From the IMG/VR virus record IMGVR_UViG_3300035698_005065: a DNA stretch of 64,000 bases. The stretch is one strand, 5' to 3'. Source of the stretch: an uncultured virus (IMG/VR IMGVR_UViG_3300035698_005065) (taxonomy: Duplodnaviria > Heunggongvirae > Uroviricota > Caudoviricetes). Below the pieces are notes generated by a model, which had not been told where the DNA came from, did not search any database, and saw nothing but the letters and a program-made list of their open reading frames with translations. A program made the translations under genes and the position numbers. Numbering within the stretch: the first letter of the stretch is position 1; each line of letters begins with the position of its first letter. This document shows positions 6,422 to 64,000 of the stretch, piece by piece.

Positions 6422-7066
6422 ATGAACAAAGAACAAATTAAGTCAGCGTCAGAAGACGTCATCTTCCAGGCATTCATCGACCACCGCCGCGCTGTACAAA
6501 AGCGGTTAGAGCAGGCCAAGAGCCGCGAAATTAAAGCCATTTTCGATTCTTGCTCGCATCCGCCCTCGTCGAAATTAGCTGATGAGAATGTCCAAAAGGT
6601 CGCCCCGGAAGAATACGGGGAGTGCGCGCCCTCCTCGGAAACGCCCCAGCATTACGGGAGCGGCGTAGGAGTTCCTTGGGACGCCCAGAAGAAAATGGAG
6701 TCGAGCGGCAACGCCTTCGTTGATGCCAGGCGATGCGACGGTATGAAATATGCCTTCCGCGTCAAGTCTGACCTAGAGGGCGACCTTCGAAAGGGCGCTC
6801 ACTGCTTGTTGGCTGCCGCGGACGAGCTGCGACGGCTTAACAACTCAGTGGTGGAGGACGAGCTGCAACGGCTTAACAACTCAGAGGCGGAGAACGACGT
6901 GGCGAAGTTCGACTTCTCATCATTTGAGGAGGAGGAGCTTGAATACTTGCGCGCGGGGTGCCCGCCCCCTCGTAATTTTATGAGCGCGTATGTGCGGGCT
7001 AGAAACGAGGAACTCCCCAAGTCGGAAAACGTCATGCGGGATAATTCGAGTAAGACTGAATCATGA
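6422..7066 (+). CDS. DUF3310-like domain protein
   Basis: PQHY...MKYAFR...DLRKGAHCL pattern; short internal duplication DELRRLNNSVVE/DELQRLNNSEAE. Confidence 0.45.
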   Translation: MNKEQIKSASEDVIFQAFIDHRRAVQKRLEQAKSREIKAIFDSCSHPPSSKLADENVQKVAPEEYGECAPSSETPQHYGSGVGVPWDAQKKMESSGNAFVDARRCDGMKYAFRVKSDLEGDLRKGAHCLLAAADELRRLNNSVVEDELQRLNNSEAENDVAKFDFSSFEEEELEYLRAGCPPPRNFMSAYVRARNEELPKSENVMRDNSSKTES

Positions 7067-9486: not shown

Positions 9487-10175
9487 GAAAATTTTCGTAG
9501 ACAAACAAAAGCATCCGCTTAGGGTGCTGTAATGGAAGTATTAGAGAAAGATTGTGAGATGTGCGGCAACACATTCACAGAAGTAAGTGCCGCTGTCATG
9601 CGGCAGAAGCGCTATTGCGGGGTGTGCACGCCCGCAGAGCGGGGTAAGGTGAATAACCTAAACTTAGAGGACTGCTAGGCGCGTCCGAGCGCCTACCTCT
9701 ACGCTACGACTTCTACATCGCAGGTTGTCAAACCTTGGTAGAGGCAGACGGGGAGCAGCATTACCAAGAAGGACCTGACACATACTTCGACACTAAGAAC
9801 TTGAAAGAGCACGACCGAAGAAAGAATGAATACGCCAAGGAGAACGGCTTAAAACTTATCCGAATCCGTTATCGCGCCACCTTTGCCGAGGTCCGCGAAT
9901 TAGTTTGTCTAAAACTCGCCCCTTTAATCAGTAATGATTAAAGCAAACCTATTTAATTCAGGGGAACCCTTTTCGAAGGCAATCCTGAGCGAAGCCGCCG
10001 CATGGCGGAACGTGCAACGACTATCCCGAAAGGGAGTAGAACCAAGTGGTTCGAAATAGTAGGGACCCGGCACGCGTCGGGTCATGATATAGTCTGGTCT
10101 GCAGACATAATAAATAAACTGCAGCTGTCACCAAACGTGGCGGGCTTAGCTTAACGAGCTAGGCTGAACACAACG
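9487..10175 (+). ncRNA. group I self-splicing intron (IA-like) in DNA polymerase gene
   Basis: 5' exon ends in U9486, intron ends in G10175; splicing restores TETG|RTRSWMPNTLNWP; P1 GGGU|GA pairs with UCGCCC 9916-9921; P2 hairpin with GUAA loop 9922-9943; core GCAATCCTGAGC, GCAACGACTA, GATATAGTC (P7 10019-10023/10090-10094). Confidence 0.9.
9532..9941 (+). pseudogene. degenerate intron-encoded homing endonuclease (Zn finger + Vsr/DUF559-like nuclease)
   Basis: 9532-9678 encodes CEMC..YCGVC then stops; a different frame encodes LPLRYDFYI..LVEADGEQHY..DRRKNEYAKENGLKLIRIRY. Confidence 0.7.
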
Positions 10176-21324: not shown

Positions 21325-21858
21325 ATGAACATGAAAACCACGACTACATCAAGCGATCTCTTCATTGACGAGGATGACTTATCTGAGGCACTCCAAGACG
21401 CTTGGACTGACCACTGCACAGACACGGGGCACATTCCCGGCTTTCTCTCGTTTACCATGGGAGAGAATGGAGAAGAGATTCAAGCTGACTTTTTAGGGTC
21501 ACATTTCTCGACTATGGTAGCCGCGCTCCTCAATTCTAGGAATGAAGAGAAAAGCGTTGCAATCGAAGCAGATAGGAAGCCGCTTGAATGGCGTAAAGGA
21601 CCAGCGCACGAAGACTTCGATTCTGAAAGCTACTTCTGGGGCGACGGCGAAAGGATCTTAGTAATCGTAAAATACAGCGACGGAGAGAAAACAATCCTCG
21701 TCGATACGTCATGCGATGAACACTACTCGGTCCTGAATCTACTTGATGGCACGTTTGACGATTCCGGCGTGTGCCCCGAAGAAGTAATCTGGTGGGCTGC
21801 TGTGAATCCCGACAACTGGCCATCTTTGATGAACAACCAAGATCAAACATCGCCATGA
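21325..21858 (+). CDS. hypothetical acidic protein
   Basis: 177-aa ORF with A-rich leader. Confidence 0.65.
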   Translation: MNMKTTTTSSDLFIDEDDLSEALQDAWTDHCTDTGHIPGFLSFTMGENGEEIQADFLGSHFSTMVAALLNSRNEEKSVAIEADRKPLEWRKGPAHEDFDSESYFWGDGERILVIVKYSDGEKTILVDTSCDEHYSVLNLLDGTFDDSGVCPEEVIWWAAVNPDNWPSLMNNQDQTSP

Positions 21859-21951
21859 GTGACTTCGATCCACATAAAGACTGCCCCACACCCTCCGCGT
21901 GTGGATCACATAGCGTTTGCCTTGGCGATTGTTTTGCATCGTCTTGTTCTC
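21829..21951 (-). repeat. attC-like imperfect palindrome C
   Basis: GAACAACCAAGATCAAACATCGCCA..TGGCGATTGTTTTGCATCGTCTTGTTC. Confidence 0.55.
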
Positions 21952-22139
21952 TCCTGCCGTGTCCGTTTTGCGGTGGGGAGGCAAAAATTGAACGCTTGGG
22001 AAACCGTCGCACCAGTTGCATCGTTGGATGCACGAAATGCCACTGCACCTTAGAAACCAATGAACAAGGAGCGGGGCACTTCTGGAATCTTAGAGAGAAC
22101 TCCTCCATCCTGCCACCGAAAGATAAAAATAAACCATGA
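21855..22139 (+). CDS. Lar-like (restriction alleviation) zinc-ribbon protein
   Basis: LLPCPFCGGEA..CTKC..WN motif. Confidence 0.6.
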   Translation: MSDFDPHKDCPTPSACGSHSVCLGDCFASSCSLLPCPFCGGEAKIERLGNRRTSCIVGCTKCHCTLETNEQGAGHFWNLRENSSILPPKDKNKP

Positions 22140-35493: not shown

Positions 35494-35585
35494 TCAAAGC
35501 AGGAGTTTTCACCGCCGCCGTCAGAATACCTGACGGCGGCTGGTGTTCCTCTTTACCTAGCGCAAGTAAAGTGCTAAACGTATGC

Positions 35586-37568
35586 ATGTTCAAGAAGGCT
35601 AGCAGCTCGGAAGATCTCTCAACTACGGAGAGTATTATGGGTAGGATTTACCGAGAAGAGCCGTCTTACTGGCCCTACGGACTTGCGAGGGATCAGTTCG
35701 ATCCGGGCGGTCTCTACCTGATATCTAAGGCGGCAGGCGCGGAGCCCGTAGGCTTCGTCGGGTGGCAGTCCCGACAAGAGGGGGATAGAAAAGTGGGGTA
35801 TTACGCCATCGGAGTTCTGCCGGAACACCGAGAGCAGGGCTTCGCTAAGCAGGCCGTGGCGCAAGTCCTACGCTGCAAGTCGGGCGAGGTCGACGAGGTC
35901 CGCGCGCTGATCGCGGCGCACAACGCCCCGAGCAAGAGTCTGGCCGCCTCCCTATCGATCCCGGTGATCGAGAAGGTGGCCATGACGGGGGGCGCCGCCA
36001 AAGCCTTGAAAGGGTGGGCGCGCACCCGGCATAACGCGGGGACAGCAGGGGCGCTCGGGTTAGGCGCCGCCGGTACCGTCGCATTCTACGATCAAGCCAA
36101 CGACGCCAGTCGGACTGTTGATAGCACCTTGGACCCTTCTGGGTGGGATAAAGAGAGATCTTTGATTGGAGGCCTGAACGCCGCGATCGGCGCAAGCGCG
36201 GGATACGCAGCTGCGCGGCACGGCAAGGCCGGTATTTTGTCGAGCTTGGGAGCATTCGCCCTCGCACCAGCTAAAGACGCTCTGATAAAAGGGCAGTCCA
36301 CGATGCACAAGATCGATAACGTGTCTGAGTCTCTCGTCGACTACATAGACGCTAGAAAAAAAGATGAAGCGAACGCCGCGCCTGCCTTGCCTGAATCCAA
36401 CCTGTGGGACAAAATCCCTAAGGGTCTTCTTCTCGGTGCGGGCGGCCTAGGCCTGGGAGCTCTCGCCATCGCAGCCTACAAGGCCAAGAAGAATTCTGAT
36501 AACCAGGAGAAGGCGATCGCCGAGAGCGGTAAAGGTAGAGTCCGCGTGACCCTCCCAACCAAGAACCCGGGGGACGTCGAGACTCAGCTGGAAATACCTA
36601 TTGAGGAGATCAACCTGTCCAACGCACTTCGCGGGCGCATCGGCCGCGACACTCGACGACGCTTGCTTTCGGAAACCAAGGCCCGCACAAAAACCCGAAA
36701 ACCCGAGGACCCCGACAACCCTAACGAGAGGGAAGAGGAGGACCTGGACATTGACCGAGAGCACCAACAACTCTCCAAGGTCGCGTCCTTCAAAAACGGC
36801 GTCGAGACGATCTACGCCGAGAAGGCGGGAATGGCTCCCCCTCCTCCCCCGAACACCGGCGTCCCCACTCCTCCCATACCGGGACAGAACCCTGCTATGC
36901 GCCAAGCAACAGCCAACTCCATGCCTCCTTCGACGGGCGCTAATCCGCAGATCATGAAAGCCGAGCAGGCAGCTACGGAAGCTCAGCAACAGGGGGCGCA
37001 GCAGGCGGCCGCCATGGAGCAGCAGTCTCAGCAGGCGCAAATGGAGCAACAGCAGAAGTTCCAAATGGAGCTCGGAAAAAAGACGCAGGAAAACGAGATC
37101 CTGAAGATCCAGATGGAGCGACAGAAGGCCGAGGCCGACCTAGCCAAGCAGAAGGGAGAGCTGAGTGCTGAGGCGTCAGGGGGCGAAGCGACAGCTGTCC
37201 AGCGTCTGACTAGTTCGCGCCTAGACAGGCTGCACAAGCGCGTCAAGTCGGCGAGTCCTGCCGCGCCCGCGCCAGGACTCGCGCCAACCCCAGGCATAAA
37301 GGTTCTTAAGCCAGGCGCTGGTCAGCGGGTCAACGATAGCCCGATGGTTACGAAGTTATTCGCGTCGCCGGGCGCCTACCGGACCTCTTACGGGAAGATG
37401 GGAGACTGGATATACGACACGCTGTTTCGCACGGGCGCCATGGCTCCCAAGGCGCAGCCTTCCACGTTACCCCGGGGTCCAGGTATGATGGGAAGTGCGA
37501 TGACCGCCGTCGACGTCATGAATTCTCCCGATCAGCTTCGAGCTTTGTCGTCCCTTTACGCACGATAA
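35586..37568 (+). CDS. GNAT acetyltransferase domain fused to Gly-rich helices and Gln-rich coiled coil
   Basis: IGVLPEHREQGFAKQAV acetyl-CoA motif A and HNAPSKSLA; modules separated by KKAS, EKVA, KVAS, KSAS. Confidence 0.7.
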   Translation: MFKKASSSEDLSTTESIMGRIYREEPSYWPYGLARDQFDPGGLYLISKAAGAEPVGFVGWQSRQEGDRKVGYYAIGVLPEHREQGFAKQAVAQVLRCKSGEVDEVRALIAAHNAPSKSLAASLSIPVIEKVAMTGGAAKALKGWARTRHNAGTAGALGLGAAGTVAFYDQANDASRTVDSTLDPSGWDKERSLIGGLNAAIGASAGYAAARHGKAGILSSLGAFALAPAKDALIKGQSTMHKIDNVSESLVDYIDARKKDEANAAPALPESNLWDKIPKGLLLGAGGLGLGALAIAAYKAKKNSDNQEKAIAESGKGRVRVTLPTKNPGDVETQLEIPIEEINLSNALRGRIGRDTRRRLLSETKARTKTRKPEDPDNPNEREEEDLDIDREHQQLSKVASFKNGVETIYAEKAGMAPPPPPNTGVPTPPIPGQNPAMRQATANSMPPSTGANPQIMKAEQAATEAQQQGAQQAAAMEQQSQQAQMEQQQKFQMELGKKTQENEILKIQMERQKAEADLAKQKGELSAEASGGEATAVQRLTSSRLDRLHKRVKSASPAAPAPGLAPTPGIKVLKPGAGQRVNDSPMVTKLFASPGAYRTSYGKMGDWIYDTLFRTGAMAPKAQPSTLPRGPGMMGSAMTAVDVMNSPDQLRALSSLYAR

Positions 37569-37569
37569 C

Positions 37570-39483
37570 ATGCACGTAGTAAGGAACAACAGACTCGAGG
37601 AAATCCCCGACGACGACGAAGATGTCGACTACGAGTTGGAAGACCCGTCTCGTCAGTATGGGACGCACACCAACAGTATCCCGCTTCAGTCCGCTGTGCA
37701 GGCTCCCCGCTTGTTTTACGGAGGGAGATTCGCGAACCAGGCTCATGCTATCGAGGGAGGGGAGGCACCGCTCGTGCAGAACCTTGACCCCAGCGACCCA
37801 GAAGGTCGGAGCTTCGATGACATACTCGGGGAAAAGATGGGAATTCAGCGCGCCAAGCGAGCTGGTAGGATCACCGCGGTGTCTCCTGACAGCGTGTCGG
37901 TGCAATACGATGACGGGGAGGCGGGAGAGTTGGGCCTATACAACAATTTCTCGTTCAACCAAAAATCGGGCATCACTTCTCGAGTGCTTCTCAAGGAGGG
38001 TGACAGCTTCGAACCTGGGCAGATGATCGCCGCGTCTAGCTACACCGACGACAACGGCACCATGAACATGGGACTGAACGCGCGCATCGGCCTCGTTCCT
38101 TGGAAGGGTTTTAGCATGGACGACGCCATCCCCATCTCGGAGAGCTTCGCCAAGCGCATGGCTGGGGTGCACTACAAGGTGATGAAGCAGGACTTTTCGG
38201 ACAACCTCAAGACTGGGCTAACCCACTACCGGGGACTTTTCGCGTCTAGGTTTACGAAGGACAAGCTCACCAACTTCGATGAGGATGGACTCGTAAAGCC
38301 TGGCACGATCCTGGACCCCGGGGACCCAGTCATGTTAGCCACCATGCCCCGGACTATGTCCAGCGCTGGAGCGAACGTCGGCAAGCTTAACCGGGCGCAG
38401 CGTCAGTCTAGGCGTGACGCTTCTCAGACGTGGGACGGGCATCAACCCGCAGAGGTTGTTTCCGCGCGAAAAACCAAGAACGGCCTCAAGGTGGTCCTGC
38501 GATACGTGAAGCCGACGGAGGTTGGTGACAAGCTGGTCCTGCGGCAGGGCGCTAAGTCGACCGTGTCTCGCATTATACCAGACGCCCAGATGCCGCACAC
38601 TGAGGACGGGAAGCCTCTAGACGCCCTCCTAAACCCGCTCTCTTTGGTTTCGAGGGCCAACCCAGCGTCGCAGCACGAGATACGCCTCGGTAAAATCGCG
38701 GCGCTGCTTGGTAAGCCTTTGAAGATCCCGTCCTACTTACCGAAGGGTCAGTCTTGGAACGATTACATTTCCCAGCTCGAAGACCAGCACGGTGTCACTT
38801 CAAAAGAGCGCGTGTTTGACCCAGAGTCGCAGCGCTTTTTGGCTAACCCCGTGACCGTCGGTAACGCCTTCATCAACAAGCTTCACCACACTTCCGCAGG
38901 TAAGTTGAGTATGCGGGGTTCCGGGAGTTACGACGCGAACGAGCAACCTTCACGCGGCGGCGGTGAGAACGCAGGAGCTAAGAGATTCTCCGGACTGGAG
39001 AACTTTGCGGCACTGTCGTCTGGAGCTTACGCACTCCTGAGAGAGAACTCCACCCTTCGAGGGCAGCGCAATGACCAGTATTGGCGAGACCTTAGATCCG
39101 GCAAGCCCACGAAGGCACCGGGGTCTCCTTTCGTGTGGGACAAATTCCAGGCGATTCTATCTGGGGCTGGCATAAACCCCCGGGAGGTCAGCAAGGGCCG
39201 CTTTCGCCTGGCACCCTTTACCGACAAAGACCTCGACGCGCACAATCCTATCGAAGTAAAGAACGGGGAACTCGTGGACCTCAAGACTTTGGGATCAGTG
39301 GACGGCGGACTCTTCGATAAGCGCATCGTAAGCGGCGAGAGTTGGGGTCGTATAAAGCTCCCCCGACCGGTGATCAACCCGGCAATGGAAGACGCCGTGC
39401 GTAACTTGCTAGGCCTGACTAAGAATCAGCTCGGCGATGTCCTCGCTGGTAGGTTAGGGCTGGCTGAGGCTACTCAAAAATAG
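37570..39483 (+). CDS. RNA polymerase beta C-terminal half fused to beta-prime N-terminal segment
   Basis: VPWKGFSMDDAI, VGDKL..GAKSTVS..MP..DGKPLDALLNPL..SR, KLHH..QPSRGG..KRFSGLE; then beta-prime-like EVKNGE..DGGLFD..GRIKLPRPV. Confidence 0.9.
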   Translation: MHVVRNNRLEEIPDDDEDVDYELEDPSRQYGTHTNSIPLQSAVQAPRLFYGGRFANQAHAIEGGEAPLVQNLDPSDPEGRSFDDILGEKMGIQRAKRAGRITAVSPDSVSVQYDDGEAGELGLYNNFSFNQKSGITSRVLLKEGDSFEPGQMIAASSYTDDNGTMNMGLNARIGLVPWKGFSMDDAIPISESFAKRMAGVHYKVMKQDFSDNLKTGLTHYRGLFASRFTKDKLTNFDEDGLVKPGTILDPGDPVMLATMPRTMSSAGANVGKLNRAQRQSRRDASQTWDGHQPAEVVSARKTKNGLKVVLRYVKPTEVGDKLVLRQGAKSTVSRIIPDAQMPHTEDGKPLDALLNPLSLVSRANPASQHEIRLGKIAALLGKPLKIPSYLPKGQSWNDYISQLEDQHGVTSKERVFDPESQRFLANPVTVGNAFINKLHHTSAGKLSMRGSGSYDANEQPSRGGGENAGAKRFSGLENFAALSSGAYALLRENSTLRGQRNDQYWRDLRSGKPTKAPGSPFVWDKFQAILSGAGINPREVSKGRFRLAPFTDKDLDAHNPIEVKNGELVDLKTLGSVDGGLFDKRIVSGESWGRIKLPRPVINPAMEDAVRNLLGLTKNQLGDVLAGRLGLAEATQK

Positions 39484-43914: not shown

Positions 43915-45885
43915 ATGATTCCGGATAATTTAGTATTACTAGACCAACCAAGGAGTGGCGTTCCTGACACGCTTGTGGATTTATTTTGTGGAGCGGGCGG
44001 CTCCGGTGGCGGCCTCCTAGAGGCTAACAAAATCCTGAATAGGGACGTCGCCGGGACGTTCGTGAACCATTGGGACGCCGCGATCGACATCCACACCGCG
44101 AATCACCCGGAGCACAGGCACATGCGCGAGGACCTTTTCAAGCTGGACCCGAAGTCTGTGTCGCCACCGTCCCCCGGGTGCTCTCTGATGTGGGCGTCTC
44201 CTAGCTGCCAGCATTTCAGCGTAGCTAAGGGGGCTGCCTGCGTCTCTGAGCAGGAGCGCTCGCACGGCCACTCCGTTTTAGACTGGGTCGACCACGTGCG
44301 TCCAGATTGCCTTATCGTAGAGAACGTCCCCGAGTGGCTCTCGTGGGGACCTACATTACAGAAGCGTCGGAAAGTCCGCCGCGGTAAGGGGGAGCTGATG
44401 TGGGCTAAAAGTAGCAAGCCGGTTCGGCTCCTCCCAAAAGGACACGCCCGTCGCCGGACTCCTAGAGAGGCGGAAGCCTCCTGGTCTTCCCGTATGGAGG
44501 GCTTAGGGTATGCGCCCTACATGGTCCCCGATAAAAGCCGCGCGGGGGAATACTTCTCCGCGTGGGTGTCTGCCCTCACAGAAAAGGGATACACGCTGGA
44601 GTGGCGCATCCTCCGATCGTGCGACTACGGCGACCCGACAATCCGAAGACGTTTGTTTGTGCAGGCCGTCCGAGACGCCTGCGGAAAGACCGCCGTCTGG
44701 CCAGACCCTACGCACGACAAAGGCGGGGAAGTCCCCGGTAAGGTGTGGGCGTGGCCTAGCGCGCGTGACCACGTCATTGACTGGTCGCACCGAGGTCAGA
44801 GCGTATTTACGAGGAAGCGTCCCTTAGCCGACAATACGTTCCGACGCCTTGCGATCGGGTTAGTCAAGTATGGGCTCAAGGAGTTTCTGTCGCCTAACTT
44901 CGGTGAGCGCCCCACGCAGCAGCCTCGCACGCATTCGCTAGAGGCGCCTCTACCTACGGTAACTTCTCATGGAGCTGGAGGGCTGGCGGCCCCTGAGGCC
45001 TACATCCTTCCGAAGGACGCCGGCCACCAGGTTGACTACACTCGCAGCGTCCATATGCCCCTGCAAACACTCACTACAAAATCCCACGAGGTGCTCGTAG
45101 AACCCGCTGTCATACAGCTAAAAGGTGCGTCGACGGCGCAGAGTGTTGACGGACCTCTCACCGCGGTGACGTCGAACCCGGCGCATTACGTCATGCAGCC
45201 CCTGGTTGACCATCTGCGAGGGACTGGAGTGGCCAAGCCAGTTAGTGAGCCGATACCCACCGTAACGTCTTCAGGAAGCCACCAGGCCCTCGCCGAGGCG
45301 TTTATGATGGCTATCGATCAAACGGGAGGAGGTAAAAATCATGGGCGCTACGGAGTTGACTCGCCTGTGCGCACGCTTGTAACGAAAGCGAACGCTTCGT
45401 GCATTGAGCTCGAACTTGATGAACTCCGCGATCGGTTTATGAAGGCTTGCACCCACAAGGGGGTGGACATTTCAAGGGCGTCCACTTTCCTGAGGTTCCT
45501 AATTGCGGAGTTGCACAAGACCGGACGCGTGGATGCTAAGCCCTACATCTACGTTTACTATTCTTCGGGATCGGAAGGATCCGACATCGACCGTCCGCTC
45601 CCGACGTGCCGAACCAAGGCTGGGCACGCCCTGGTCTACCCAGCTATAGAACTCGACGGGAGGCTTATCAGGATAGACCTTTTCTACCGCATGCTGACTA
45701 ATGTGGAGCTTCAAAAAGCAATGGGGTTCCCGGTCGATATGAAGTGGGCCGGAAAGAACAAGACGGAGATCACAAAGGCGATCGGAAACTCCGTCACACA
45801 CGGACTAGCTAGGGCGCTAGGTCTCGCCTGGTATAGTCAAGAATCGAACATCAGACCATTCGTAGAACACATTTACGGAAAGTAA
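43915..45885 (+). CDS. C5 cytosine DNA methyltransferase (orphan, long repeat-containing variable region)
   Basis: DLFCGAGG, SPSCQHFS, VENVPE, RRRLF, AIGNSV; repeated PLxTVT units. Confidence 0.9.
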   Translation: MIPDNLVLLDQPRSGVPDTLVDLFCGAGGSGGGLLEANKILNRDVAGTFVNHWDAAIDIHTANHPEHRHMREDLFKLDPKSVSPPSPGCSLMWASPSCQHFSVAKGAACVSEQERSHGHSVLDWVDHVRPDCLIVENVPEWLSWGPTLQKRRKVRRGKGELMWAKSSKPVRLLPKGHARRRTPREAEASWSSRMEGLGYAPYMVPDKSRAGEYFSAWVSALTEKGYTLEWRILRSCDYGDPTIRRRLFVQAVRDACGKTAVWPDPTHDKGGEVPGKVWAWPSARDHVIDWSHRGQSVFTRKRPLADNTFRRLAIGLVKYGLKEFLSPNFGERPTQQPRTHSLEAPLPTVTSHGAGGLAAPEAYILPKDAGHQVDYTRSVHMPLQTLTTKSHEVLVEPAVIQLKGASTAQSVDGPLTAVTSNPAHYVMQPLVDHLRGTGVAKPVSEPIPTVTSSGSHQALAEAFMMAIDQTGGGKNHGRYGVDSPVRTLVTKANASCIELELDELRDRFMKACTHKGVDISRASTFLRFLIAELHKTGRVDAKPYIYVYYSSGSEGSDIDRPLPTCRTKAGHALVYPAIELDGRLIRIDLFYRMLTNVELQKAMGFPVDMKWAGKNKTEITKAIGNSVTHGLARALGLAWYSQESNIRPFVEHIYGK

Positions 45886-56427: not shown

Positions 56428-56763
56428 ATGGAAGGATTAAACAAAAACATACCACAGGATCTGATCGACCGCATGAAATCTGCCGGGTGCGGACGCTTCA
56501 CATTTTACGCAAGCGGCGGATCGGACGAAGGTTACTTCGACGTCGTCGGGTGGGAGGAGAGGAGCAACGTGTCCGTATTCCTGGACGAGCTCGTCGAAGC
56601 TATCGCGTCTGATTACAGCGTCGACGCCGCCGAAGGCGACTACGGGACCGACATTGAGTTTGACTTGCACGCTATGACCGCGACCCATAAGGAGTGGCAT
56701 ATGGAGGCGTCCTACGCAGAGCCCAGCACTCAACAAATCGCACCAGCGACGGAAGCGCCATGA
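56428..56763 (+). CDS. DUF6878-like acidic protein
   Basis: ASGGSDEG motif; adjacent to DUF6915-like gene. Confidence 0.5.
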   Translation: MEGLNKNIPQDLIDRMKSAGCGRFTFYASGGSDEGYFDVVGWEERSNVSVFLDELVEAIASDYSVDAAEGDYGTDIEFDLHAMTATHKEWHMEASYAEPSTQQIAPATEAP

Positions 56764-57146
56764 CTCCGCTAAAACACGCTCAAAGTAGCGTTCGTAAATG
56801 GAAGGGGGAGGTGTTGGATTACCTGCCGATACATGAGTTTTTCGACGAGACTAAGCAATTCACCGGTGACTGGACGCACCGGGCCCTACGTCACCACTCC
56901 GCTGGCGTGCAGTGGGCTGTCGCCCTGTTCGGGCACGTTATCACCAACGCTGACGGCACCCTAGTTCCGGTGAAGATGGTGGCAGAGCAGCACGTCACTG
57001 AGGACTGCGGGTTCGTTCCCACGCCGCAGGATTGGCTGCGGGGATTGGCTGATAGGTCAGAGCCTTGGATGCTGCGTGTCGATACTAAGTTGGTGACTGA
57101 GAGAATCCAGCCCGAGAATTCAAAGATGGGCAATCCATACGACTAA
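56760..57146 (+). CDS. DUF6915-like His-rich protein
   Basis: PLKHAQSS..DYLPIHEFFDETK..HRALRHHSAG..AEQHVTEDCG..PTPQDW. Confidence 0.65.
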   Translation: MTPLKHAQSSVRKWKGEVLDYLPIHEFFDETKQFTGDWTHRALRHHSAGVQWAVALFGHVITNADGTLVPVKMVAEQHVTEDCGFVPTPQDWLRGLADRSEPWMLRVDTKLVTERIQPENSKMGNPYD

Positions 57147-57150
57147 TATT

Positions 57151-57390
57151 ATGCCAACACCTAAAAACATACCACCCCCACCACCGGACCGCGCAGAGCG
57201 CATGCTAAAGTTCTTCGCGTGCGAGCACTTGCCTACGAGCGCCTCGCGTAAAGTCGCAGAGGAGTTTCGGGCACTCGCGCGCATTATTGATGCGCGCATC
57301 AAGCAGGGACCGGAGAGGACCGTGACTTTACGCAAGCTCCTCGAGGCTCGAGACGCCGCCGTGCGCGCAACCCTTAACCCAGGAGGATAA
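57151..57390 (+). CDS. small helical-hairpin phage protein, possibly Acb2/Tad1-related
   Basis: FFACEHLP..GPERTVTLRKLLEARDAAVRA. Confidence 0.55.
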   Translation: MPTPKNIPPPPPDRAERMLKFFACEHLPTSASRKVAEEFRALARIIDARIKQGPERTVTLRKLLEARDAAVRATLNPGG

Positions 57391-57620
57391 TGAGCGACTT
57401 ACCTTACGAGACGATCCCCCACCCGTTCAACAAAGGAGATAAGAGGCGCGTTTACGTGCTGCCGGTCATGACTCGCATAGAGTTAGAGGTCGACGACGAC
57501 CTCGACCAATGCGAGATCGACTCTCTAATCAAGCGACTGCAGTCTCAAGAGATGCACCTGAGTTTGATAAGCGGCCGCTACAGAGCGCGGAGCTTAAAAC
57601 CTACCAAAGACAACCAATGA
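57390..57620 (+). CDS. hypothetical protein
   Basis: coupled by ATGA to first array unit. Confidence 0.55.
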   Translation: MSDLPYETIPHPFNKGDKRRVYVLPVMTRIELEVDDDLDQCEIDSLIKRLQSQEMHLSLISGRYRARSLKPTKDNQ

Positions 57621-58078
57621 AATTAAAACAATCTGGGCCTCTTGCGCCCACCAATGAACCGTGGAATCTCATCCGCGATGCCATTTTCGATCTTGGACTT
57701 CAAGAGCAGCAGGAGGGCGTGGAGATCGAGATGGAAAGTCGGGGAACGATGAACGAGTGGCACGATCAACGCGACGGCGCGTGTCACCAGTGCCTCGCCG
57801 GGTCTGTCATGTCCCGGCGCCTTGGCGTTAATACTGACGCCTCCGCTTTCCCGTTCAACTTCCCCGACGACGTGAGAGACAGGCTCTGCGCGCTGGACGA
57901 TTTCCGCAACGGGGAGATTGGCTTCGCCTACCGCGAGCTGAAACTAGAACTCCCCTCCTCGATTCCTGAGCGCGTGTTTATCCCGGACTACCACCACGGC
58001 CACGCCGCCTTCAAGGCATCCATGCTAAAACTCGCCGACCAATTAGAGGCGGCACAACCAACCAAAACCAAGCTATGA
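57617..58078 (+). CDS. array paralog 1 (W-H/CxxC protein)
   Basis: QSGPLAPTNEPW..WH..CHQCLAGSVMSRRLG..FKASMLKLAD. Confidence 0.85.
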   Translation: MKLKQSGPLAPTNEPWNLIRDAIFDLGLQEQQEGVEIEMESRGTMNEWHDQRDGACHQCLAGSVMSRRLGVNTDASAFPFNFPDDVRDRLCALDDFRNGEIGFAYRELKLELPSSIPERVFIPDYHHGHAAFKASMLKLADQLEAAQPTKTKL

Positions 58079-58515
58079 TACTAGAACAATCCGGGGAACT
58101 CGCGCCCGCCAATGAACCGTGGACCCTCATCCGCGATGCGATCCACGACCTCGAACTTCAAGAGAAGCAGGAGGGCGTCGATGTCGATATGAGCGGCTGG
58201 CACGTTCCAATTATCAACGGCGCGTGTCACCAGTGCCTCGCCAGGTCTGTCATGTCCCGGCACCTTGGTATTGATACGGATAATCGCGCAGACCCGTTCG
58301 ACTACCCCGACGACGTAGCGGGCAGGCTCCGCGCGCTGAACTGGCTCAGCATCGGGGAGGTTAACGTTGCCTACCGCAGGCTGAAACTAGAGTTCCCCGA
58401 TACGCTTCCTGAGCGCGTGCACATCCCGGGCTACCGCCACAGCCCGCCCGCCTTCAAGTCCGCTATGCTCGACCTCGCCGACCGATTAGAGTCGGCACAA
58501 CCAGTCAACCAATGA
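58075..58515 (+). CDS. array paralog 2
   Basis: same motifs, ATGA overlap. Confidence 0.85.
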   Translation: MILEQSGELAPANEPWTLIRDAIHDLELQEKQEGVDVDMSGWHVPIINGACHQCLARSVMSRHLGIDTDNRADPFDYPDDVAGRLRALNWLSIGEVNVAYRRLKLEFPDTLPERVHIPGYRHSPPAFKSAMLDLADRLESAQPVNQ

Positions 58516-58955
58516 AATTGAAACAATCCGGGCCTCTTGCGCCCGTCAATGAACCGTGGACCTTGATCCGCGACGCCATCCACGACCTGACGCTTCAAGA
58601 AAAGCTGAAGGGCGTTAAGATTCGCATGTCTAATTGGCACTTACCAAGCGCCGGCGTGTGTCACCAATGTCTCGCCGGGTCTGTCATGTCGCGGCGCCTC
58701 GGCGTTGATACTAATGCTGACACGCGCCCACACGAATTACCAGACGTAGCGGCCAGGCTCCGCGCGCTGGAGGAGTTACGGTGCGGGGAGATTAGAGCCG
58801 CCTACCACAAGCTGAAACTAGAGCGCCCCGCTTCGCTTCCTGTGCGCGTGCCTATCCCGAACTACCACCGCCGCGGTCCCTCCGCCTTCAAGGCAGCCAT
58901 GCTAAAACTCGCCGACCGACTCGAGTTAGCGCAACCAGAACCAACCAAACCATGA
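58512..58955 (+). CDS. array paralog 3
   Basis: same motifs, ATGA overlap. Confidence 0.85.
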   Translation: MKLKQSGPLAPVNEPWTLIRDAIHDLTLQEKLKGVKIRMSNWHLPSAGVCHQCLAGSVMSRRLGVDTNADTRPHELPDVAARLRALEELRCGEIRAAYHKLKLERPASLPVRVPIPNYHRRGPSAFKAAMLKLADRLELAQPEPTKP

Positions 58956-59398
58956 TACTAGAACAATCCGGGCCACTAGCGCCCGCCAACGAACCGTGGA
59001 CCTTGATCCGCGACGCCATAAAAGACCTGGAACTGCAGGAGAAGCAGAAGGGCGTTAAGATCGAGATGGGCCGTTGGCACACCCCGTATCATTACGGCAA
59101 CGGCGTGTGTCACCAATGTCTCGCTGGGGCTGTCATGTCGCGGCGCCTCGGCGCTGATACTGACGCCTACATAGTTCCGACCAGCTTCCCCGCCGACGTT
59201 TTGGCCAGACTCGACGCGCTGGACGATTTACGCGGCGGGCATATTGGCGACGCCTACAGTTGGCTGGGACTAGAGCGTCCCTCCTCGATTCCTGAGCGCG
59301 TGTTTATCCCGCACTACCACTTCGGCCCAGCCGCCTTCAAGGCAGCCATGCTAAAACTCGCCGACCGATTAGAGGCGGCACAACCAACCAAACCATGA
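58952..59398 (+). CDS. array paralog 4
   Basis: same motifs, ATGA overlap. Confidence 0.85.
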   Translation: MILEQSGPLAPANEPWTLIRDAIKDLELQEKQKGVKIEMGRWHTPYHYGNGVCHQCLAGAVMSRRLGADTDAYIVPTSFPADVLARLDALDDLRGGHIGDAYSWLGLERPSSIPERVFIPHYHFGPAAFKAAMLKLADRLEAAQPTKP

Positions 59399-59826
59399 TA
59401 CTAGAACAATCAGGGACACTCGCTCCCGCCAATGAACCGTGGACCCTCATCCGCGACGCCATCCACGACCTGACGCTCCAAGAGAAGCAGAAGGGCGTTG
59501 CGATCGATATGTTCGACTGGCACTACCCTCACGATACCGGGTGTTACCAGTGCCTCGCAGGTGTGGTAATGTCGCGCAGGCTAGACGCTGATACTGATAA
59601 CACCGCAAGCCCGTGCGGCTACCCCGACGACGTGAGAGACAGGCTCTACGCGCTGAACTCACTCCGCGGCGGGGCGATTGGCATCGCCTACGATTATCTG
59701 GGGCTAAAGCGCCCCGCTTCTCTTACTGCGCGCGTAACTATCCCGGGCTACCACCGCGTCTCCCCAGCCGCCTTCAAGGCAGCCATGCTCAAACTCGCCG
59801 ACCAACTCGAGGCGGCACACCATTAG
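59395..59826 (+). CDS. array paralog 5 (C-terminus altered at RNAP junction)
   Basis: ends EAAHH instead of EAAQPTKP. Confidence 0.85.
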   Translation: MILEQSGTLAPANEPWTLIRDAIHDLTLQEKQKGVAIDMFDWHYPHDTGCYQCLAGVVMSRRLDADTDNTASPCGYPDDVRDRLYALNSLRGGAIGIAYDYLGLKRPASLTARVTIPGYHRVSPAAFKAAMLKLADQLEAAHH

Positions 59827-59828
59827 TC

Positions 59829-59865
59829 TCGCCTAAGCAGCGGCGCGGGGTAAAATAACCGCATG
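59829..59865 (+). promoter_or_regulatory. likely leaderless promoter of beta-prime fragment
   Basis: TAAAAT (59851-59856)-6 nt-ATG. Confidence 0.45.
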
Positions 59866-61074
59866 ACCGACGATATCCCGACCACCGGCCCAGAGGCTAT
59901 TATGCACGCGTTGCAGCGTATGGACTTAGACGCCATCGAGAAGGAGCAACGCCAAGTCATCACCGACCGCAAGAAGACGAAAAGACCGCGGGCTGTGCGT
60001 TTATTGAACATCATCGCGGGCCTACGTAAGAACGAGATGCAGCCATCCGAACTGATGGTGCACAGTGTACCGGTGATACCTCCGAAGTTCCGCCCGTTCT
60101 CGGTTACCGGGAACACCTTCCTGCCCGGAGACGCCAACGAACTCTACCGTGATCTGATGGAGTATCAGCGCCTCTACAACAAGACAGAGGAGGTCATGGG
60201 TCGCGGTGCGGCCGGTGAAGTCTACGAGGATTTAAATAAAGCAGTGCGGGCCGTTTACGGGTATGGGGAATCTCCCAATCCCAAGACTCGTGCGCGTAAG
60301 GTTAAGGGATTCTTCACGGCCGTGACTGGGACGAACCCTAAGACGAGCTGGTTGCAAAGTAAGATGCTGTCGAAGCCTGTCGATACGGTCGGTCGCGGCG
60401 TCATTGTCCCGGACGCAGATCTGGGTATGGACGAGATCGGAATCCCGGAAGAGATGGGATGGAAGCAGTTCGGTAACTACGTGCAGCGCCGCCTAGTGCG
60501 TAGCGGTATGTCAGCGCCCGACGCCCTGAGACACTTGGTGAATCGCACCCCGCAAGCTAGGAAGGCTTTGGAGATGGAGTTGCCGGAGCGTCCGATTGTT
60601 TTGACCCGCTCGCCGAGTTGGATAAAGACCGGGGTCATCGGCCAGATCGCTAGGCTTGTCCCAGGCGACGCGATACAGATCAATAACTTTGTTTCGGCAG
60701 GACTCGGAGCCGACTTCGACGGGGATACCGTTTCCATCCACACCCCGTCGTCTGACGAGACTGTCAAGAATGTGAGGGAGAAGCTGATGGCTTCCCACAT
60801 GCTTTGGTCTACGAAGGATCGGGACACCGCGAACGCAATACCTAAACACGAGAGTGTGCTTGGGCTCTCGCTCGGGCGCGACTCGGGAGGTAAGAAACGC
60901 TACTACGACACGGACGAGGATGCTATGGCCGCTATCGATAGCGGAGAGATGGATCTCAATGACGACGTCGAGATCGGCACTAACCCCAACCAACCAAACC
61001 ATGATACTAGAACAATCAGGGGCACTCGCGCCCGCCAACGAGCCGTGGACCCTCATCCGCGACGCTATCCATGA
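59863..61074 (+). CDS. RNA polymerase beta-prime-like catalytic fragment
   Basis: VPVIPPKFRP, DANELYR, KPVDTVGRGVIVP..IGIPEEM, LTRSPS, GADFDGD (60706-60726), SIHTP. Confidence 0.92.
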   Translation: MTDDIPTTGPEAIMHALQRMDLDAIEKEQRQVITDRKKTKRPRAVRLLNIIAGLRKNEMQPSELMVHSVPVIPPKFRPFSVTGNTFLPGDANELYRDLMEYQRLYNKTEEVMGRGAAGEVYEDLNKAVRAVYGYGESPNPKTRARKVKGFFTAVTGTNPKTSWLQSKMLSKPVDTVGRGVIVPDADLGMDEIGIPEEMGWKQFGNYVQRRLVRSGMSAPDALRHLVNRTPQARKALEMELPERPIVLTRSPSWIKTGVIGQIARLVPGDAIQINNFVSAGLGADFDGDTVSIHTPSSDETVKNVREKLMASHMLWSTKDRDTANAIPKHESVLGLSLGRDSGGKKRYYDTDEDAMAAIDSGEMDLNDDVEIGTNPNQPNHDTRTIRGTRARQRAVDPHPRRYP

Positions 61075-61438
61075 CCTGACGCTTCAAGAGAAGCAGAAGG
61101 GCGTTAGGATCGAGATGAGCGACTGGCACTTCCCACACGACGGCGTGTGTCACCAATGTCTCGCTGGGGCTGTCATGTCGCGGCGCCTCGGCGTTGATAC
61201 GAATGACAACAAGTTCCCGTTCGACTTCCCCAAAGACGTAGCGGCCAGGCTCCGCGCGCTGGACCATTTACGTTACGGGAGTATTGTCTTCGCCTACCGC
61301 AAGCTGGAACTAGTGCGCCCCGCTGAGCTTCCTTTTGATGTGACCGTCCCGGACTACCACCGCGGCCCAGCCGCCTTCAAGTCAGCCATGCTAAAACTCG
61401 CCGACCTACTCGAGTCGGCACAACCAACCAAACCATGA
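61001..61438 (+). CDS. array paralog 6
   Basis: same motifs; overlaps RNAP ORF tail. Confidence 0.85.
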   Translation: MILEQSGALAPANEPWTLIRDAIHDLTLQEKQKGVRIEMSDWHFPHDGVCHQCLAGAVMSRRLGVDTNDNKFPFDFPKDVAARLRALDHLRYGSIVFAYRKLELVRPAELPFDVTVPDYHRGPAAFKSAMLKLADLLESAQPTKP

Positions 61439-61881
61439 TACTAGAACAATCCGGGGCACTCGCTCCCGCCAATGAACCGTGGACCTTGATCCGCGACGCC
61501 ATAAAAGACCTCGAACTTCAAGAGAAGCAGGCGGGCGTTAAGATCGAGATGCGCGACTGGCACTTCCCACGCGGCGGTGGTGTGTGTCACCAGTGCCTCG
61601 CCGGGTCTGTCATGTCGCGGCGCCTCGGCGTTGATACTGATTACGACGCAGACCCGTTCGACTACCCCGAAGACGTAGCGGACAGGCTCCGCGCGCTGGA
61701 CGATTTACGCACCGGGGAGATTGGCTTCGCCTACCGCAAGCTGAAACTAGAGCGCCCTGATACGTTTCCTGCGCGCGTGCCTATCCCACGCTACGCAGAC
61801 GGCCCAGCCGCCTTCAAGTCAGCCATGCTAAAACTCGCCGACCAATTAGAGGCGGCACAACCAGAACCAACCAAGCCATGA
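61435..61881 (+). CDS. array paralog 7
   Basis: same motifs, ATGA overlap. Confidence 0.85.
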   Translation: MILEQSGALAPANEPWTLIRDAIKDLELQEKQAGVKIEMRDWHFPRGGGVCHQCLAGSVMSRRLGVDTDYDADPFDYPEDVADRLRALDDLRTGEIGFAYRKLKLERPDTFPARVPIPRYADGPAAFKSAMLKLADQLEAAQPEPTKP

Positions 61882-62324
61882 AATTGAAACAATCCGGGAC
61901 GCTCGCTCCCGCCAACGAACCGTGGACTCTCATCCGCGATGCCATTTTCGATCTTGAACTCCAAGAGAAGCAGAAGGGCGCGAAGATCGCGATGGGCGAC
62001 TGGCACTTACCACGCGACGGCGTGTGTTCGCAGTGCCTCGCCGGGTCTGTCATGTCGCGACGCCTCGGCGTTGATACGAATGACAACAAGTTCCCGTCCA
62101 CCTTCCCCGAAGACATAGCGGCCAGGCTCTACGCGCTGGACCATTTCCGCAACGGGGACATTGACGACGCCTACCGCAAGCTGGAACTAGAGTGTCCCGC
62201 TTCGCTTCCTTATAGCGTGCCTATCCCGGACTACGAAAACGGCCCACCCGCCTTCAAGGCGGCCATGCTAAAACTCGCCGACCTACTCGAGTCGGCACAA
62301 CCAAAACCAACCGCACGTCAATGA
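61878..62324 (+). CDS. array paralog 8
   Basis: same motifs, ATGA overlap. Confidence 0.85.
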   Translation: MKLKQSGTLAPANEPWTLIRDAIFDLELQEKQKGAKIAMGDWHLPRDGVCSQCLAGSVMSRRLGVDTNDNKFPSTFPEDIAARLYALDHFRNGDIDDAYRKLELECPASLPYSVPIPDYENGPPAFKAAMLKLADLLESAQPKPTARQ

Positions 62325-62686
62325 AACTGAGAAGATTATTCGCGACCTTATACGCCGCGATACTGCGCGCCGGCACTCCAGCGTCGGCCGAGCCTCCCAA
62401 GACAAACGATGCCCGACGCACCCTACGTCTCAGGGATTACGTCAGAGACATGGAGGCCGCTGGGTATGTGTGCTCCTTCTGTCAGCCCATCCCCGTCCCA
62501 GAGCTGATGACCGACCGGGAGGGAACGATAAGAATAAGCAGGGAGTCGTATGCTAACCACCTTGATTTATACCAAGAGGTGATGGTTCCTGCTGAAGATG
62601 TCGCGATTCATATCGTGATGGGTCTGCACTTCTGGTATTTCGATTCTGTATCTGCGGACGCCCCGAATATTGGAGATTATTTTTAA
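62321..62686 (+). CDS. hypothetical protein
   Basis: ATGA-coupled to paralog 8. Confidence 0.55.
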   Translation: MKLRRLFATLYAAILRAGTPASAEPPKTNDARRTLRLRDYVRDMEAAGYVCSFCQPIPVPELMTDREGTIRISRESYANHLDLYQEVMVPAEDVAIHIVMGLHFWYFDSVSADAPNIGDYF

Positions 62687-62693
62687 ACTTTAA

Positions 62694-62770
62694 GCGCGCG
62701 TAGCTTAGCGGTTCAAAGCAGCCGTCTCATAAACGGAAGATCGCGGGTTCAAATCCCGCCACGCGTACCA
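62694..62770 (+). tRNA. tRNA with CAT anticodon (elongator Met or lysidine Ile2), encoded CCA
   Basis: acceptor GCGCGCG/CACGCGT with one mismatch, D arm TAGCTTAGCGGTTCAAAGC, loop CTCATAA, T arm GCGGG-TTCAAAT-CCCGC, ACCA end. Confidence 0.9.
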
Positions 62771-62774
62771 ACTT

Positions 62775-62804
62775 AACACCCGCCCGGACAACCGGGCGGG
62801 TGTT
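62775..62804 (+). terminator. hairpin after tRNA
   Basis: AACACCCGCCCGG-ACAA-CCGGGCGGGTGTT perfect 13-bp stem. Confidence 0.7.
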
Positions 62805-62935
62805 CTAATTTACCATGAAAACAAAAAACGAAAAATGCTACTGGGACTTCAGCGCCGAGGCACCGGCGTATTCCTCCCAATATACGAGCGGCGGTCGCTC
62901 GTCCATCTTTAAGGTTAGCGCGTTCGCCGTCGAAG

Positions 62936-63205
62936 ATGCTACCACCCCCGACCGTCATGCGTGAAGTATTCTGCAGCCCTAGCCAGGGGCCAACCAAGGA
63001 AGCCCCCAAAGGCGTCTTCGCGGAGGCCTACTCCGTGACTGTGACCTACCTGACAGAGTTCGGAAAGTTGATACAAGGGGCCGAGGTCACCGTGTATGTG
63101 GACGTGCTCGCAGGAGGGGAGGAGAAGGTCAGCCACGAGAGAGCTGCCGACGTCGTGCGGGGAGCCCACCCCGGGTGCGACGTAACCAAAGTGACCTACT
63201 GGTAG
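62936..63205 (+). CDS. hypothetical protein (start uncertain)
   Basis: 89-aa ORF abutting next gene. Confidence 0.4.
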   Translation: MLPPPTVMREVFCSPSQGPTKEAPKGVFAEAYSVTVTYLTEFGKLIQGAEVTVYVDVLAGGEEKVSHERAADVVRGAHPGCDVTKVTYW

Positions 63206-63206
63206 C

Positions 63207-63458
63207 ATGAACAACAACCATTTGCGGCCCGCGTTTGCGGCCTACCAGCATTCCGTCCCAGGGTTTCCGCATGTCATACTCAAGTGGCACGAGGACAAAG
63301 GAATCGTCGTTTCGCAATACGTCACGATTAAAGGAAAAATACACCCGTGGACGTTTGAGACGGGCCACGGCATGTCCGTAAATTTCGACCGTGTCATTCC
63401 TCACTTCGAAGCGTGGGTGCGCGCGGTCTATTGGGACGACGTCACCGTGCAAGGATGA
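63207..63458 (+). CDS. hypothetical protein
   Basis: 83-aa ORF. Confidence 0.55.
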   Translation: MNNNHLRPAFAAYQHSVPGFPHVILKWHEDKGIVVSQYVTIKGKIHPWTFETGHGMSVNFDRVIPHFEAWVRAVYWDDVTVQG

Positions 63459-63476
63459 ACAAAAATCAACCAACCA

Positions 63477-63917
63477 ATGAAATTAAAACAATCCGGGCCT
63501 CTTGCGCCCGCCAATGAACCGTGGACCTTGATCCGCGACGCCATCCACGACCTGACGCTTCAAGAAAAGCTGAAGGGTGTTATGATCAATATGAGTAATT
63601 GGCACTTACCAAGCGCCGGCGTGTGTCACCAATGTCTCGGCGGGTCTGTCATGTCGAGGCGTCTCGGCGTTGATACTAATGCTTGCGCAAACCCGATCAA
63701 CTACCCCAAAGACGTAGCGGCCAGACTCCACGCGCTGGACGATTTCCGCATCGGGGATATTTACGCCGCCTACGACAGACTGGACCTAGATCGTCCCGCT
63801 TCGCTTCCTCTTGATGTGACCGTCCCGAGCTACCACCGCCCACCCGCCTTCAAGGCAGCCATGCTCGCAATCGCCGACCTACTCGAGGCGGCACAACCAA
63901 CCAAAACCAAGCTATGA
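63477..63917 (+). CDS. array paralog 9
   Basis: same motifs; 5' half nearly identical to paralog 3. Confidence 0.85.
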   Translation: MKLKQSGPLAPANEPWTLIRDAIHDLTLQEKLKGVMINMSNWHLPSAGVCHQCLGGSVMSRRLGVDTNACANPINYPKDVAARLHALDDFRIGDIYAAYDRLDLDRPASLPLDVTVPSYHRPPAFKAAMLAIADLLEAAQPTKTKL

Positions 63918-64000
63918 TACTAGAACAATCCGGGGCACTCGCGCCCGCCAATGAACCGTGGACCCTCATCCGCGATGCGATCCACGACCTCGAACTTCAA
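63914..64000 (+). CDS. array paralog 10 (truncated by window end)
   Basis: MILEQSGALAPANEPWTLIRDAIHDLELQ; nearly identical to paralog 2 start. Confidence 0.8.
   Translation, partial: MILEQSGALAPANEPWTLIRDAIHDLELQ

Follow-up and report, generated by a model that had tools for sequence, protein, structure and literature searches.

A mosaic array of 27 small, diversified paralogs joined by overlapping stop and start codons in a large uncultured salt-lake phage

The 3′ end of a 64,000-nt stretch of DNA from an uncultured virus of the Caudoviricetes (IMG/VR record IMGVR_UViG_3300035698_005065; the whole stretch is called the window below) was found to carry an array of small paralogous genes that all encode versions of one protein. 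The array continues beyond the window, and a near-identical reference contig contains 27 intact copies in blocks of 5, 3, 6, 9, and 4, spanning 19.1 kb (57617 to ~76762 in window-equivalent positions). An initial annotation, made from the letters of the window, had counted at least 10 copies; these proved to be real, but the number was understated. It had also interpreted the array as a gene accordion, and if this is taken to mean a recent expansion in copy number, the interpretation fails. DNA identity among the 27 copies is 72–87% (median 78%), no pair exceeds 87%, adjacent and distant copies are equally alike (0.782 vs. 0.782), and the array recurs across assemblies. Therefore, a recent accordion was ruled out, and the best reading of the array is an old, stably kept multigene family with mosaic copies.

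Within the window, the copies form three blocks (5+3+2), namely copies 1–5, 6–8, and 9–10. The + strand carries all long open reading frames (ORFs) of the window, and those of the array region are as follows.

57390..57620, + strand: 76-aa ORF with no assigned function (Pfam and PHROG: no match); its stop overlaps the start of copy 1 (ATGA)
57617..58078, + strand: paralog copy 1, 153 aa, with a 6-aa insert ahead of the WH motif
58075..58515, + strand: paralog copy 2, 146 aa
58512..58955, + strand: paralog copy 3, 147 aa
58952..59398, + strand: paralog copy 4, 148 aa
59395..59826, + strand: paralog copy 5, 143 aa, with the tail shortened to ..AAHH at the border with the inserted segment
59863..61074, + strand: RNA polymerase beta′ fragment gene, 403 aa, with a DFDGD motif (RNA_pol_Rpb1_2); interrupts the array
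61001..61438, + strand: paralog copy 6, 145 aa; a remnant of the usual tail/leader (..ccaaccaaccaaacc ATGA) lies ahead of it
61435..61881, + strand: paralog copy 7, 148 aa, the copy used for the structure model
61878..62324, + strand: paralog copy 8, 148 aa
62321..62686, + strand: unrelated 121-aa ORF, ATGA-joined to copy 8, with a hydrophobic signal-peptide-like N-terminus (Pfam and PHROG: no match)
62936-63205, + strand: unrelated 89-aa ORF between blocks (Pfam and PHROG: no match)
63207-63458, + strand: unrelated 83-aa ORF between blocks (Pfam and PHROG: no match)
63477..63917, + strand: paralog copy 9, 146 aa, which opens the third block
63914..64000, + strand: paralog copy 10, truncated at the window edge; its counterpart in the near-identical contig has 148 aa

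These coordinates bear out the nine complete ORFs of 143–153 aa and the tenth cut by the window edge, all intact, that had been described initially, and every conserved block named at that stage (QSGxLAPxNEPWxLIRDAI, WH, CxQCL, VMSRxL, RLxAL, and FKxxMLxxADxLE) is present. Protein identity to copy 1 is 61–76%, and Tandem Repeats Finder returned periods of 437–443 nt. The reported chaining through ATGA holds for all seven within-block junctions of the window, each of which is a 4-nt overlap, but not for the window copies as a single chain, since the beta′ fragment and three unrelated ORFs separate the blocks.

The reference contig was obtained by merging two metagenome loci, L005 and L010, via their overlap. 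It differs from the window by one mismatch in 6,384 nt across the array part and by one base in the 10 kb upstream. All 27 copies start with ATGA, and all 22 within-block junctions are 4-nt ATGA overlaps. The gaps between the blocks contain the beta′ fragment, a YAcAr SLOG-domain protein (PF10686, E = 8e-13), a DUF3085 protein, and small ORFs without assignment. The last copy is followed by a HAD_SAK_2 protein and then, ~5 kb downstream of that copy, by a tail-like gene with a pectate-lyase fold (L010 16796-18331). Two copies carry larger in-frame changes. Copy 14 (L010 694-1299) reaches 201 aa through a 55-aa C-terminal extension, and copy 20 (L010 7192-7653) combines a 4-aa deletion in helix 1 with a 9-aa tandem duplication (..YHLFGPPAYHLFGPPA..) ahead of the FK motif.

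The initial annotation had pointed out that such an array could be an assembly artefact in which variants of different strains are joined. Short-read assemblies do break within the array, where G001 and several contigs end, and the Logan contigs are fragmentary across it. However, three further assemblies agree with the reference contig at 99.99% identity over 11.2 kb (L006), 99.98% over 18.3 kb (L009), and 100% over 3.2 kb (L011), and the four assemblies have the same copies in the same order. In addition, contigs of four runs were placed on the window, and the depth of pieces unique to copies 2, 5, 6, 7, and 9 was compared with that of the flank. The flank depth was 14.7 in run X1 and 71.4 in run X4, and the copy-unique pieces ranged over 8.5–17.9 and 47.6–73.1, respectively; they thus lay at 0.6–1.2× the flanking phage depth in these two runs, which are not fully independent, as the runs probably stem from a single sampling campaign, possibly with the source sample among them. 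Had variants of different strains been chained, each would show only part of the flank depth, whereas near-flank depth was seen; therefore, the copies share one genome. Furthermore, a protein-database record describes one 160,313-base contig that bears at least 17 distinct copy clusters. An artefact of strain variants, which these results do not bear out, can hence be regarded as extremely improbable.

The same record indicates that the genome of this large, uncultured salt-lake phage is at least as long as that contig (at least 160 kb), and the coding share of the copies (~12 kb) amounts to ~7% of such a genome. The stretch is contained in 24 public runs labelled salt lake metagenome, none of which is on record as RNA.

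The mosaic character of the copies was evident from several comparisons. Exact shared runs of 84–105 nt occur in pairs that are 78–83% identical overall, with the 105-nt maximum in pairs of 78% identity, and the best-matching partner of a copy shifts between successive 90-nt segments. The four-gamete test was failed by 59.5% of informative-site pairs. Moreover, a neighbour-incompatibility statistic modelled on the pairwise homoplasy index was 0.563, compared with 0.595 ± 0.011 under permutation, and none of 1000 permutations was as low. This excess of compatibility between neighbouring sites is the signature of recombination or gene conversion. Two other sources of variation or mobility were considered and rejected. 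For a diversity-generating retroelement, no reverse transcriptase turned up in scans of 53 + 30 window ORFs and 22 ORFs of L010, none of which was a dedicated search, and a homing endonuclease or mobile-gene reading found no nuclease motif or family match.

Other contigs from like samples (L008, L013, and L014–L017) carry additional copies, none of them more than 81% identical to any of the 27, and a variant of copy 1 with 90% identity lies in L007, where the upstream sequence is different. None of these seven contigs overlaps the window outside the array. They represent either another part of the same genome or related phages with arrays of their own.

Constraint and diversification were evaluated on a codon alignment of the 27 copies (142 codons), with residues numbered as in copy 7. 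W42, H43, C51, C54, D25, E30, Y120, F127, and K128 are kept in all 27 copies, and R92 in 26. Pairwise ratios of nonsynonymous to synonymous rates (dN/dS), calculated by the Nei–Gojobori method for each column class, were 0.10 for the 84 conserved columns, about 0.9 for the 21 intermediate columns, and 1.7 for the 37 most variable columns, the last value being circular because these columns were picked by amino-acid variability. Over all 142 columns the ratio was 0.6, and overall estimates lay at 0.6–0.7. The fixed scaffold with variable segments that had been noticed at the outset is thus supported by the 84 of 142 codons at 0.10, together with a limited set of codons that change faster than synonymous sites.

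This faster set was identified by two home-made tests. In a parsimony check, changes were counted on separate neighbour-joining trees of five segments and compared with the gene-wide synonymous rate. Six of the 142 codons (residues 71, 75, 93, 98, 113, and 119) were above neutral after Bonferroni correction, with omega values of 2.5–3.1; 13 codons passed p<0.01, and 22 were significantly purified. In a tree-free check, diversity at second codon positions was compared with that at 51 four-fold sites (mean 0.23, 95th percentile 0.57, maximum 0.66). Seventeen of 142 second positions exceeded the 95th percentile, where ~7 would be expected if all were neutral (binomial p = 8e-4), and eight of the 17 also exceeded the four-fold maximum. 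Together, the tests put at about 17–20 the number of codons that vary faster than synonymous sites. Sites at which the nonsynonymous rate exceeds the synonymous rate are therefore present, and diversifying selection is supported within the limits of such tests. The per-site dN/dS analysis suggested in the initial annotation was in this sense positive, although only the six codons survive correction, in a method prone to bias by recombination. In addition, the net charge of the copies spans -13 to +9, with copies 3, 7, and 11 the furthest apart, which argues against a uniform DNA-binding or DNA-mimic role.

The structure of copy 7 was predicted with AlphaFold2 from a 40-sequence alignment. The model has very high confidence, with a predicted local distance difference test (pLDDT) score of 96.8 and a predicted template-modelling (TM) score of 0.91, and it portrays the protein as a compact α/β domain of ~145 aa. 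The predicted elements are a helix (15–30), three strands (35–37, 43–46, and 50–53), three helices (55–63, 79–92, and 96–102), a long extended segment, and a final helix (124–141). H43 is predicted to open the second strand, C51 to lie within the third, and C54 to cap the helix that follows. The rigid core consists of helix 15–30, the W42–H43 strand, the C51-x-x-C54 knuckle at the start of helix 55–63, R92, Y120, and F127–K128. The fast positions fall into five groups: 40, 41, 44, 46–50, and 52, which are interleaved with W42, H43, P45, C51, and C54; the loop 66–78; 82, 86, 90, and 93 in the region of helix 79–92, which from their spacing would lie on one helix face; 97, 98, 101, and 102; and 107–125. 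H43, C51, and C54, kept in every copy, make up a candidate zinc site of the CxxC-plus-His type, for which D25 or E30 may be queried as the fourth ligand. All of 136 relatives share C51, and at least 90% of them have H43 and C54. A homodimer prediction (score 0.28, mark 0.42) carries no weight either way.

The fold search proposed initially was also carried out with this confident model, and it returned no match among solved structures: Foldseek gave none against the PDB at E<=1e-3, and the best of 48,161 chains in VIA-align had a Z of 4.4, with none at 5 or above. Low-ranked zincin-like matches (ArdC, SprT, IrrE, and selecase) had TM scores of 0.15–0.2 and were treated as noise. Among the viral models of BFVD, the best match (TM 0.63, probability 1.0) was a viral protein without a name, and another of the best was a Cellulophaga phage protein that is likewise uncharacterised (TM 0.48).

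At the sequence level, no family model in Pfam, PHROGs, or NCBIfam matches the copies, and profile searches of PDB sequences with two profiles gave nothing better than E 1.5. With tblastn, copy 7 had no match in GenBank phages, and P0163, a distant member, had none in GenBank phages or PLSDB plasmids. However, when 1.84 billion representative proteins were searched with a profile, 5,889 clusters were retrieved at E<=1e-3, 4,191 of them at E<=1e-10, and most are 132–160 aa long. The statement that the family could not be recognised therefore stands as far as names go, but the copies are not orphans, as these clusters are mainly viral. The family consensus reads LPDKPSELIRLAL-DL--E---Y-I-M--WH-P---C-VCLAGAVMA, and seven polar residues (H43, C51, C54, D25, E30, R92, and Y120) are conserved both over 136 distant members and in 26–27 of the 27 array copies. 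Ten distant representatives are all unnamed or called "hypothetical protein", and look-alikes in the ESM Atlas belong to hypothetical-protein clusters that are 71–95% viral. Fused duplicates occur (P0078 and P0126). The only longer fused forms found were P0212 (342 aa, with a C-terminal part without assignment) and P0213, itself a fused duplicate whose first repeat has lost both cysteines; neither contains a Pfam domain.

Copy number elsewhere was surveyed at 27 viral loci. The ORF caller found the gene at 22 of them, and at the other five none was called despite a tblastn match. Within about 5 kb, 17 of the 22 loci have one copy, four have two, and one has three. Thus, the 27-copy array is an extreme, lineage-specific expansion. 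In the accessible parts of the literature on phage paralog arrays, including PMC12028318, nothing relevant was found.

The closest named family is DUF6197 (PF19698), whose function is not assigned. It is similar in size, mostly phage-borne, and shares the local pattern W ... C-x-x-G-A-(L/V). At the Pfam cut-off of 24.6 bits, five of the 136 distant members gave matches below threshold (best E 0.002), as did P0078 (23.4 bits), and one ESM Atlas look-alike cluster contains 20% DUF6197 members. In L051 (3831-4635), a family member is immediately preceded by two tandem genes that truly belong to DUF6197 (35.3 and 50.3 bits), which hints at kinship; the surroundings also include a gene resembling NUMOD3 homing endonucleases and a gp5-like gene. 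The DUF6197 model matched none of nine window copies at E<=0.01, and hhalign comparison of the family profile with the two single DUF6197 sequences of L051 gave probabilities of 0.3% and 0.1%. Judged by these two sequences only, DUF6197 differs in the absence of WH and of the first Cys and in a C-terminal HEEVL motif that the array family does not have. The family is, at best, distantly DUF6197-like. A literature search for DUF6197 yielded only a phage genome announcement.

The junctions between copies were examined for expression signals. A Shine-Dalgarno-like 4-mer precedes only one of the 27 copies; of the other 53 window genes, 10 have one. The leaders are A- or A/C-rich. This pattern suggests a host with Shine-Dalgarno-independent initiation, which is the mode of translation initiation in Bacteroidota. 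The last codons of each copy (..AAQPTKP, gcacaaccaaccaaacc) are at the same time the leader of the next. Although this last block has the lowest confidence of the model (mean pLDDT 84), the tail is conserved in DNA because it doubles as that leader. Each gene would in this way carry the translation start of its successor, with the A/C-rich tail codons (..AQPTKP) forming an unstructured leader and the stop overlapping the next start. The overlap at all 22 within-block junctions is as expected of a translationally coupled operon, and together with the tail-as-leader arrangement it indicates that each block is probably read as one polycistronic message. Searches for sigma-70 promoter-like sites (3 vs. 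4.2 ± 2.1 in shuffles) and terminator-like sites (11 vs. 9.6 ± 3.6) gave counts not above chance.

The A/C-rich string also occurs before copy 6, within the 3′ end of the beta′ ORF, where the third frame reads PQPTKP-stop. A run of about seven CAAC repeat units (L010 4946-4985) serves as the leader of copy 15, the first of the fourth block. Given this surviving leader string and the CAAC run, the junctions look like places where foreign segments entered or blocks broke. A different element was observed around single gene cassettes, including block-initial and isolated paralog copies: a conserved GC-rich hairpin (CCCCTCCTCGC, loop, GCGGGG) followed by aaacaga..ATG. It was located at L010 8990-9011 and 9962-9983, at L007 764-785, and in L014 (5), L015 (5), L016 (4), and L017 (3); no copy of the motif lies in the window. 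The stem-loop plus promoter cassettes of T4-type phages resemble these units.

The nameable genes that adjoin family members are of two sorts. The first comprises replication and recombination genes, namely SNF2 helicase, PD-(D/E)XK nucleases including DUF3799, AAA_24, DUF669, sliding clamp, and a DsbA-type regulator. The second is typical of the early, conflict-related regions of phages and conjugative elements. The YAcAr SLOG domain lies near family members at three loci (the gap of the array itself, L020, and L044), and there is a weak SLOG match in L052. DUF3085 is also among the neighbours. The remaining examples, by locus, are L018 (Tad2-like domain), L022 (N6/N4 methylase and pentapeptide-repeat protein), L004 (DUF932 and Mg-chelatase-type ATPase), L044 (Imm5-like protein), and L026 (integrase). 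YAcAr and similar domains have been linked with counter-defence in work on polyvalent proteins, and the gene neighbourhood may be taken as a hint of such a role.

The remainder of the window was scanned with PHROG and Pfam, which identified it as part of a large phage. Primase, Dda-like helicase, UvsX/RecA-like recombinase, NAD-dependent ligase, DNA methyltransferase, and peptide deformylase were recognised, and the following features were located.

7063-9522 and 10191-11858, + strand: family-A DNA polymerase in two ORFs
21771-22139, + strand: weak Lar-like restriction-alleviation match (E 2.1e-5)
37570-39483, + strand: RNA polymerase beta subunit, C-terminal half (Rpb2_6, E 8.8e-43)
43915-45885, + strand: large DNA methyltransferase
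56760-57146, + strand: DUF6915 protein (E 4e-39)
57151-57390, + strand: phrog_1761-type small protein

The first DNA polymerase ORF also matches the uracil-DNA-glycosylase superfamily, and the gap of ~670 nt between the two ORFs contains no long ORF. The DUF6915, phrog_1761-type, Lar-like, and methyltransferase genes may possibly provide anti-restriction functions elsewhere in the window.

The phage carries its own RNA polymerase genes. Ahead of the beta half stands an ORF of 665 aa whose N-terminal part resembles GNAT acetyltransferases (region 35571-39483). The beta′ fragment within the array matches RNA_pol_Rpb1_2 (E 1.4e-16) and positions 171–549 of the 1216 of phrog_25354 (E 1.2e-39), and by these matches it corresponds to the middle part only of the beta′ subunit of a multisubunit RNA polymerase. 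The last 74 nt of its ORF run into copy 6 in a different frame. Neither the window nor the remaining array gaps yielded the N-terminal (~170 aa) and C-terminal (~650 aa) parts that phrog_25354 would lead one to expect, and the idea of a location in those gaps found no support, as they hold YAcAr, DUF3085, and ORFs without assignment. Split RNA polymerase genes of this kind are seen in other jumbo phages, and the polymerase gene that splits the array blocks looks essential.

As to function, the interpretation that we favour, with a confidence that stops a little short of even, is that the array supplies a panel of co-expressed variants of one binding module, which differ in specificity and are directed against variable host proteins. 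The core is held fixed, about 17–20 positions change faster than silent sites, and gene conversion between copies reshuffles segments; every copy would then bind its own version of some variable host protein, early in infection, to counter defence or to help take over the host. A more far-reaching form of this proposal, which we put forward tentatively and consider rather doubtful, is that the phage keeps a repertoire of at least 27 co-expressed versions of a recognition module with a previously unseen fold, and that conversion and positive selection keep the copies different in order to neutralise polymorphic host defence or toxin proteins.

Several points weigh against a recognition panel, and some of them also favour mere redundancy, in which the array arose for dosage or by chance and the differences are long neutral drift at unconstrained surface positions. 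The variable positions match the columns left free in the family as a whole, the overall dN/dS is below 1, and few sites survive correction. The trees carry much synonymous change (3.24 changes per synonymous site), parsimony counts are inflated by recombination, and the four-fold sites came from amino-acid-conserved codons only, where codon bias may depress diversity. Furthermore, the longer forms P0212 and P0213 offer no informative domain fusion, and most neighbours of family members are small ORFs without a Pfam match, so that the neighbourhood signal is thin. Relaxed constraint thus explains part of the variation. However, it fails to explain the sites that outrun silent sites or why no two copies become alike. 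All 27 copies are intact with every core residue kept, and the 17 second codon positions above the neutral 95th percentile are more than the ~7 expected. Moreover, a dosage array would be expected to be near-identical or homogenised, yet even with gene conversion active, no pair comes closer than 87% identity. We therefore consider redundancy with neutral drift quite unlikely.

Another reading is that the copies form a panel of enzymes, metal-dependent or Cys/His-based, with H43, C51, C54, D25, E30, R92, and Y120 at the centre and the variable residues tuning the choice of substrate. Seven polar residues conserved to this extent exceed the need of a purely structural site, the most variable positions (the group at 40–52) flank exactly these residues, and the model places C54 at a helix N-terminus with H43 on a neighbouring strand, an arrangement common in thiol and metal enzymes. 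The fold and profile searches, on the other hand, found no similar solved structure or enzyme family, and the first repeat of P0213 does without both cysteines, so that we regard an enzyme panel as unlikely. Virion-associated proteins (decoration, internal, or ejected) with variable surfaces for contacts with the particle or the host envelope were considered as well. The phage T4 locus of varied internal proteins is a precedent, and the tail-like pectate-lyase-fold gene lies near the last copy. The array, however, sits among replication, recombination, and small early-type genes, the family elsewhere stands beside SNF2 helicase, PD-(D/E)XK nuclease, AAA_24, sliding-clamp, and DsbA-type genes, and the copies have neither a signal peptide nor similarity to structural proteins (Pfam, PHROG, and BFVD), which leaves a virion role improbable.

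Phages rarely keep large paralog families, and here 27 intact variants of one small domain have been retained. A frozen core, fast positions, and segment shuffling form the pattern expected of a molecular arms race. The array is a natural variant series for finding the target of the family and lends itself well to the study of how numerous copies in one virus stay distinct while gene conversion continues. If the repertoire proposal were true, the array would be a viral counterpart of immune-receptor or variant-surface multigene families and would provide a handle on the function of the 5,889-cluster family.

Among known systems, the K3L accordion of poxviruses and the multigene families of African swine fever virus involve tandem expansion of one viral gene, host antagonism, and diversification of copies. 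The present array resembles them in the tandem expansion of one gene in a virus. However, accordions are recent and near-identical and vary in copy number, whereas the copies here are well diverged and the same across samples; in addition, the hosts of those viruses are eukaryotic, whereas the host of this phage is a bacterium. Polyimmunity loci (SUKH/Imm) consist of tandem, diversified small immunity proteins that act against polymorphic toxins and are thought to neutralise many variants of one kind of attacker. Like the array, they are series of small paralogs that combine a conserved fold with variable binding surfaces, which in the array are candidate surfaces on the predicted model. In contrast to those loci, the array copies have no Pfam Imm or SUKH match, no toxin gene lies alongside, and the phage is a large one of lytic type. 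What is new here is the size of the array, the combination of mosaic structure with the pattern of selection, and a large viral family with an unmatched fold.

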